From assembly GCA_035544875.1 (NCBI GenBank), contig DASZZP010000038.1, positions 192,185-256,184 of the forward strand: a stretch of 64,000 bases of DNA. Direction: 5' to 3'. Below, one piece after another: positions 50,987-51,460 of this stretch. Position 1 is the first letter of the stretch, and every line of letters starts with the position of its first letter. A program made the position numbers and the translations under genes. The notes under the pieces are model-generated. The model was not told where the DNA came from. It ran no database searches and saw nothing but the letters and a program-made list of their open reading frames with translations. Origin of the DNA: Thermoanaerobaculia bacterium (GTDB lineage Bacteria > Acidobacteriota > Thermoanaerobaculia > Multivoradales > UBA5704).

Positions 50987-51160
50987 CTAAGACTGAGTTG
51001 GTGGTGCGGGGGAAGAGAGCCAGTCTCCAATCTCAAACTCTTCCTCGAGCAGAGTGACATTCGTACCCTGCTTGTAGCTCTGGTAGTACTTTCCTCGAAC
51101 CGCATTCGAAAAGTCATACTCAGGCTGCAGATCGTCGTCGTCTTCAGGTTCCTGACTCAT
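50987..51160 (-). CDS. Small BrnA/DUF4415-like putative antitoxin (57 aa)
   Basis: MSQEPEDDDDLQPEYDFSNAVRGKYY... (the DFS.A.RGK motif seen in BrnA-type antitoxins). Lies directly downstream of, and overlapping, the brnT-like reading frame. Low-GC patch. Confidence 0.4.
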   Translation of the reverse strand: MSQEPEDDDDLQPEYDFSNAVRGKYYQSYKQGTNVTLLEEEFEIGDWLSSPAPPTQS

Positions 51161-51415
51161 AGCGCTTTCTCTCGTGTGCGGTGGCCACTCTGGCACTGAT
51201 GATCCTACTGCTCTTCCCTGCTTCGGAATGCGCAACCACTAACAGTCGGCTCCGCGCCGACCCATCGTGACATAGCGTGGCTCAAGTTCGGAATGCTTTA
51301 GATCACGTATCGTCGCCGCAAGCGCATCGCCGAAGACGGTGCTCGCCTCCTCGAACGAGAGCCCATGCTTTGCTATGTTCCGAAACGCTTTTGCCGGGTC
51401 CCATTCGAACCTCAC
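51144..51415 (-). pseudogene. BrnT-family (DUF497) ribonuclease toxin gene with internal frameshift
   Basis: Frame A from GTG 51415 reads [52 protein letters not shown], then stops. Frame B continues [38 protein letters not shown], which is the BrnT C-terminal RIISAR...ER..YE signature. A 1-nt indel near 51262 separates the two. Confidence 0.55.
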
Positions 51416-51460
51416 AGCCGAAGTATACGGCCAAACGAAGCCTCGCCGTGCCTGGAGAGG

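Follow-up and report, generated by a model that had tools for sequence, protein, structure and literature searches.

BrnT is an RNase with a four-stranded beta-sheet, and its activity needs Asp6, Glu7, Lys9, Arg41 and Glu78 (review of Brucella work, PMC5086665). In Brucella abortus it forms the toxin half of the type II toxin–antitoxin (TA) pair BrnT/BrnA, whose members are described by the profiles PF04365 and PF14384 and by the PDB entries 3U97 and 7VD7. The second of these structures holds a BrnT-like toxin together with a 44-residue antitoxin fragment that ends in ...QWSEAVRGKFFRP. Chromosomal TA loci drift to inactivity, and the toxin is lost first since the reverse order would be lethal (PMC2654758). 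Here we describe a brnT locus from the metagenome-assembled genome (MAG) of a soil acidobacterium (Thermoanaerobaculia) in which both genes of the pair are damaged. We read it, with a probability of about 0.8, as a recently decayed brnT–partner type II TA cassette that died through two real, independent lesions.

We examined the locus within the whole stretch of DNA that was analysed, 64,000 nt long and called the window below. The cassette region (51440..50987, minus strand) is bounded on one side by the stop of leuB, with which a leuC-leuD-leuB run ends, and on the other by that of a transglutaminase-core gene in convergent orientation. The composition profile identifies leuB as host core DNA of ~73-80% GC, and the transglutaminase-like neighbour has 560 homologs in Acidobacteriota genomes. 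The GC content of 50987-51440 is 0.55, compared with 0.715 in the 2 kb flanks and 0.716 in the whole window, which agrees with the low-GC patch described in an earlier reading of the same DNA made from its letters alone (hereafter the sequence-only reading). The stop codons of the transglutaminase-core gene and the partner remnant are only 7 nt apart. In tblastn searches of all 64 kb, an intact 91-aa toxin homolog recovers the two toxin pieces of the cassette (E 2e-29) and the partner gene is recovered at E 8e-17, with no second copy of either gene. Rfam finds no family at gathering score over positions 1-64000, including the region upstream of leuC-leuD-leuB, which therefore has no recognised leader or riboswitch. 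Elsewhere in the window, ARAGORN calls a 91-nt tRNA-Thr(GGT) at 37041-37131 on the minus strand, within a 1,120-aa ORF (34188..37550); the Rfam tRNA model does not match this interval even at E <= 1, and the call is probably a false positive.

Table 1 Features of the cassette and its two neighbours, given as positions in the window.
Feature	Position	Strand	Evidence or remark
leuB (3-isopropylmalate dehydrogenase)	51461..52501	-	TIGR00169, E 2.6e-122; upstream neighbour of the cassette
-10-like hexamer TATACT	51422..51427	-	6 nt ahead of the GTG that starts brnT
brnT N-terminal fragment, 58 codons, GTG start	51239..51415	-	PF04365 positions 1-49 of 77
4-nt deletion site, between ATGG and GTCGG, -1 shift	51258..51265	-	DNA alignment with intact L002 and L004
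brnT C-terminal fragment, -1 frame	51144..51251	-	PF04365 positions 52-77, E 8.6e-5
Partner (antitoxin-like) 5' part, codons 1-39	51045..51160	-	82% identity to ~70-aa family members
Non-homologous tail of the 57-aa ORF (EEFEIGDWLSSPAPPTQS, then stop)	50987..51044	-	Takes the place of the conserved C-terminal half
Transglutaminase-core protein, 350 aa	49927..50979	+	PF01841 on the Logan gene call; convergent downstream neighbour

The toxin gene is present in two pieces. Its N-terminal fragment, closed by a premature TAG at 51241..51239, matches the Pfam family BrnT_toxin (PF04365) with an E-value of 3e-14 and 53.5 bits, well above the curated cut-off of 34.5 bits. The encoded product is identical to GenBank HVT58461.1 ('MAG TPA: BrnT family toxin [Thermoanaerobaculia bacterium]'), which comes from a 350,704-nt contig of the MAG. 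The C-terminal fragment reads SRLLVV...RIISAR...ERKRYESGT up to a TGA stop at 51146..51144, shows 76% identity over residues 58-91 by tblastn, and has no credible start of its own. Joined, the two pieces cover PF04365 positions 1-77 with 85.8 bits, and the rejoined toxin matches the toxin chain of the crystallised complex (7VD7_A) with an E-value of 5.5e-12. An uninterrupted brnT ORF of ~90 aa is absent from the locus: a 4-nt deletion is followed by the premature TAG, and the C-terminal 34 residues are left in the -1 frame. When the DNA is aligned to L002 and L004, two intact cassettes, a 4-column gap opens directly 3' of ATGG; the spacing from TMG to RLLVV is 15 nt (5 codons) in intact homologs and 11 nt in the window, and the protein alignment agrees. 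The sequence-only reading had assigned the N- and C-terminal BrnT signatures to different minus-strand frames, placed the break at ~51262, taken the toxin to be inactivated by a frameshift, and suggested a DUF497 profile search. All of this stands, in that PF04365 is matched separately by the two frames, the frame junction falls at about 51262/51261, and comparison with intact relatives identifies the shift as a 4-nt loss.

Outside this lesion the toxin is remarkably well preserved. Its closest intact homologs, 91 aa in length, share 70-75% identity with it. Of 41 columns with at least 90% conservation among 108 intact homologs, 40 are kept once the frames are joined, and the sole exception is located at the deletion site. 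The integrity of these positions argues that inactivation was recent. The equivalent of Glu78 and the RIISAR strand are both encoded 3' of the frameshift. The deletion at ~51262 would cut BrnT short after 55 native residues, and since the last beta-strands and the C-terminal Glu are lost in this way, the 58-aa product should be inactive as a toxin.

The partner gene follows on the minus strand as an ORF of 57 aa with an ATG start (51160..50987). It holds EYDFSNAVRGKYY, and the DFSNAVRGKYY motif that had been picked out in a downstream 57-aa ORF is thus found where it was reported. The partner ATG and the old toxin stop overlap by 17 nt (51160..51144), exactly as in intact L002, which fits the toxin-first, overlapping brnT-type arrangement that had been proposed. 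The proposal that the antitoxin was retained fails. A first search returned 84 homologs, typically 69-71 aa long, with the consensus MSQEPEDDDLxPEYDFSGAVRGKYYxRYQQGTNVVLLDPDVAQAFKDSESVNRALRLLLDLA..., and the window ORF is alignable to this family over residues 1-39 only (82% identity, 68% of the query), a part that comprises the acidic tract and EYDFSNAVRGKYY..QGTNV. Within it all N-terminal invariants are kept (E12, Y13, D14, V19, R20, G21, K22, Y23, G30 and N32). The family alignment shows that F44, V50, N51, A53, L54 and R55 are gone, together with the whole C-terminal block LDPDVAxxFxDSxSVNxALRxL. In the acidic tract (51130-51141, minus strand), the window exceeds L004 and L002 by one or two in-frame Asp codons (DDDD, versus DDD or DD), a length variation in a GAC/GAT repeat. 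The partner ORF (P0001) is apparently uncalled in the NCBI annotation of the MAG and known only from Logan.

We compared the 110 nt that follow 51045 with the 3' regions of 83 intact partners and found no similarity beyond that of shuffled sequences (mean score 15.27 versus 15.32 +/- 0.65 for shuffles; maximum 23 versus 22.6 +/- 2.5). The missing C-terminal segment is likewise in no reading frame of the locus. A frameshift alone as the origin of the tail is rejected, since neither any frame nor the DNA itself keeps similarity to the lost part. The partner lesion resembles a deletion or rearrangement for which the convergent host gene forms the boundary.

To which family does the partner belong? 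An exhaustive profile search gathered 6,622 clusters (at 50% identity) at E <= 1e-3, 2,741 of them at E <= 1e-10; members of the family at large are ~70-100 aa long. The 57-aa ORF of the window has no match in Pfam, NCBIfam or PADLOC. PF14384 is matched neither by this ORF (E <= 1) nor by 20 intact relatives (E <= 10) or 96 diverse members (E <= 1), and the only library matches of the family are weak, to VapB_antitoxin (E >= 0.056, in 5 of 96 members) and to DUF1641. Judged by these profile searches, the partner is a large unnamed family without a Pfam, NCBIfam or PADLOC model. The label BrnA/DUF4415 given to it in the sequence-only reading has to be dropped, as the ORF and 116 intact relatives are without a PF14384 match at E <= 1. 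That reading had also held that a small ORF without any profile match would refute its inference. Such a match is indeed missing, but the antitoxin identity survives through the BrnT genes that accompany the family and through a remote similarity to BrnA.

The first of these ties comes from 80 metagenome loci, sampled for the presence of a full-length partner gene. An intact-looking BrnT lies directly upstream of the partner in 56 of them and a partial or frame-split BrnT in 13; BrnT is absent from 6, located downstream in 2, and 3 loci are uninformative. This pairing in 56/80 loci supports an antitoxin role of the partner family. L137 and L139 (1501-1692, 1838-2104) lack an upstream BrnT and encode one ~150 nt downstream of the partner, in the same orientation; this reflects either an inverted gene order or a toxin that belongs to a neighbouring cassette.

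The second tie is an hhalign comparison with a profile of four canonical BrnAs, taken from annotated Acinetobacter, Klebsiella and Providencia plasmid pairs and scoring 62-68 bits on PF14384. An alignment of 43 columns links them to the partner family; it shows 40% identity and extends from FS.AVR.G.YY via LD.DV..F to N.LR, with an E-value of 1.9e-4 (probability 48%) when a 20-sequence profile is used and of 2.4e-3 (probability 12%) with a 96-sequence profile. The alignment is suggestive of a remote homolog of BrnA that stands outside PF14384. The partner motif DFSGAVRGKYYQ is the same as the QWSEAVRGKFFRP end of the toxin-bound fragment 7VD7_B. When an intact partner is modelled as a monomer by AlphaFold2, an extended stretch precedes helices at 38-43 and 47-64; the confidence is low (pLDDT 67), and the fold would be compatible with a ribbon-helix-helix protomer. 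Foldseek retrieves nothing for this model from the PDB at E <= 0.001. Sequence-profile searches of the PDB with the family return designed helical repeat proteins only, and these matches were discarded as compositional. Together, the remote BrnA similarity, the pLDDT 67 monomer and the boundaries of the crystallised construct suggest that the retained N-terminal part with its (F/W)SxAVRGK(Y/F)(Y/F) motif is probably the toxin-binding segment, and that the lost C-terminal half would be a ribbon-helix-helix-like part for dimerisation and operator binding.

Upstream of brnT, the hexamer TATACT is a probable leaderless promoter of the cassette. In a survey of the equivalent position in L002, L004 and L085-L164, TAnnnT occurs 5-8 nt (mostly 6) before the GTG or ATG start in 40 of 44 intact relatives, while at control offsets the mean count is 0.6 and the highest 2; just 1 of the 44 has a Shine-Dalgarno-like core. 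Leaderless transcripts have been reported for TA operons of M. tuberculosis (PMC8485053). Scanning the cassette for generic sigma-70 promoters and for terminators yields no full promoter and no terminator. In the closest relatives the palindrome GTATAC, a possible operator, encloses the -10 box.

Related loci display other states of decay. L003 has an intact partner and no toxin. L170 carries, again with no toxin, a 42-codon partner stump abutting a convergent ferredoxin-type gene. In L171 and L172 (1470-1505) the toxin has been deleted almost exactly, so that TATACT is fused to the last ~13 nt of brnT (GAAAGAAAGCGCT / AAAGGCGCT) and the partner ATG; these are two independent loci, and in both the partner is also truncated near codon 38. 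Taken with the 13/80 loci that have partial or split toxins, these four wrecks indicate that decay is routine in the partner family. L172 contains, in addition, a second decayed cassette ~600 nt upstream of the first (L172:647-886), which consists of a BrnT C-terminal fragment and a frameshifted partner. With its PSK_trans_fac and HicB-like antitoxin genes and a phage-type integrase, the surroundings of L172 look like a TA-rich mobile island.

We also asked how the cassette came to lie between its two neighbours. Its low GC content is typical of the family, as cassettes fall below their flanks in 45 of 50 intact loci (mean 0.593 versus 0.633), with the contrast in the window being the strongest. 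In 80 related Acidobacteriota genomes, no BrnT or partner gene is found beside the transglutaminase-like homolog; a convergent leuB directly next to the transglutaminase-like gene is seen at 0 of the 80 loci and lies ~2.3 kb away in 3. The absence of the cassette from these 80 genomes and of a second copy from the window point to a lineage-specific, fairly recent horizontal insertion. A search of these 80 loci for synteny and an empty site revealed neither the insertion site nor the origin of the 58-nt tail.

From these observations we propose the following course of events. A low-GC type II TA cassette, made up of a BrnT-family RNase toxin gene and an overlapping short BrnA-like partner gene, would have been inserted horizontally between leuB and the convergent transglutaminase-like gene. 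The toxin was presumably inactivated by its frameshift before, or at the same time as, a rearrangement or deletion after 51045 took out the conserved C-terminal half of the partner; we infer this order because loss of the antitoxin beside a live toxin would be lethal. What would be left is a dead toxin and a 57-aa ORF with an N-terminal acidic tract and the motif. Everything beyond the two lesions still looks like the rest of the family, which makes both of them recent. The locus is now most likely without TA function.

A different outcome would be that the remnant still works as an orphan antitoxin: expressed from the cassette promoter, the 57-aa protein would neutralise some other or incoming BrnT without its DNA-binding half. 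The ORF is open, the -10 hexamer is kept, the N-terminal invariant positions are all in place, and the motif coincides with the C-terminal end of the 44-residue antitoxin fragment that was co-crystallised with a BrnT-like toxin in 7VD7. Independent stumps in L170, L171 and L172 are cut at codons 37-43, a clustering that is confounded by detection bias, as the query finds only stumps with the N-terminal part; and in L171 and L172 the deletion of the toxin brings the -10 box to the start region of the partner. The concept of anti-addiction is established for ccd (PMC2654758), where the chromosomal ccdEch is set against the ccd module of the F plasmid, and a chromosomal antitoxin remnant could likewise neutralise an incoming toxin here; unlike ccdEch, however, the remnant in the window is without its family's conserved C-terminal half. 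Against activity of the stump, the 64-kb window holds no further BrnT gene, translational coupling is broken, with the toxin frame ending 79 nt upstream of the partner ATG, and the protein now ends in 18 unrelated residues. Toxin loss followed by erosion of the antitoxin is moreover the neutral expectation. We consider a functional stump unlikely. Its broader form, in which the N-terminal stump (acidic tract and FSxAVRGKYY) is a self-sufficient neutralising peptide kept repeatedly, with the leaderless promoter of the cassette, after toxin death, in the window as in L170, L171 and L172, strikes us as quite unlikely. If true, such wrecks would be domesticated anti-BrnT immunity genes of soil Acidobacteriota, and the boundary near codon 38 would be the point at which antitoxins of a large unnamed family divide into two modules, a neutralising half and a repressor half.

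The reality of the toxin lesion itself also has to be weighed. The sequence-only reading had allowed for a sequencing indel, with a homopolymer or indel error at ~51262 as the thing to look for in the reads; a sequencing or assembly artefact would mean that the toxin is truly intact and the locus a working TA pair. MAG consensus sequences can contain indels, and a toxin that is family-typical outside the lesion, with its 40/41 conserved positions, is what an artefact would also give. But the lesion spans 4 nt rather than 1 nt and is not in a homopolymer: throughout the 43-nt shift-permissive interval (51281..51239) no run is longer than 3 nt. The contig of a second assembler, in the Logan assembly of SRR12277194, matches the window with 100% identity across 5,467 nt that include the lesion, an agreement that rules out an assembler artefact but would also arise from a systematic read error, as both assemblies may stem from the same reads. 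Furthermore, the partner gene of the same cassette has an independent and much larger lesion, unrelated to the first, and a live toxin would be hard to tolerate beside a partner without its conserved half. An artefact is accordingly very unlikely.

Programmed -1 ribosomal frameshifting or transcriptional slippage that would yield full-length BrnT, although in line with a C-terminal part in the -1 frame, the direction of classical -1 frameshifting, is rejected as having a next to negligible chance, because the 43-nt interval contains neither an X XXY YYZ heptamer nor a run above 3 nt, the toxin is in one frame in 56/80 related cassettes, and the junction is a 4-nt deletion inside a variable loop.

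Read as a doubly broken cassette, the locus is a case of ordinary selfish-gene decay, one more pseudogenised chromosomal TA cassette. It has consequences for annotation. HVT58461.1 is mis-annotated, being listed as a plain 'BrnT family toxin' and not as a pseudogene. Calls of an 'orphan antitoxin' need to be checked against the length of the family, given that the antitoxin is truncated here too. With no Pfam, NCBIfam or PADLOC model for a partner family of 6,622 clusters, BrnT loci of Acidobacteriota are systematically annotated as solitary toxins. The related loci, for their part, form a decay series (pairs still intact, toxins split or deleted exactly, partners truncated) in which the death of TA cassettes can be studied.

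Compared with BrnT/BrnA of Brucella abortus, the window toxin is likewise a clear PF04365 member, and the two systems share the gene order, with the toxin gene first and the antitoxin gene overlapping its end. The motif (W/F)SxAVRGK(F/Y)(F/Y) is common to the partner and the BrnA system, and the LDxDV...F...N.LR segment of intact partners aligns with the C-terminal part of BrnA. In contrast to BrnA, members of the partner family have ~70 aa and not ~100, are without the N-terminal 40 residues of BrnA, have a shorter linker and are unscored by PF14384; and, in contrast to the described pair, the toxin in the window is frameshifted and its partner is without the entire C-terminal half.

As to its fate, the locus differs from ccdO157 of E. 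coli and the inactivated hok/sok copies of E. coli K-12 (PMC2654758) in belonging to another toxin family and an uncultured acidobacterium, in having both genes hit, and in being represented by a single genome rather than a population-level series. Like them, it is a horizontally acquired chromosomal TA locus that would have accumulated inactivating mutations, with the toxin inactivated and the antitoxin eroding or, in related loci, orphaned.
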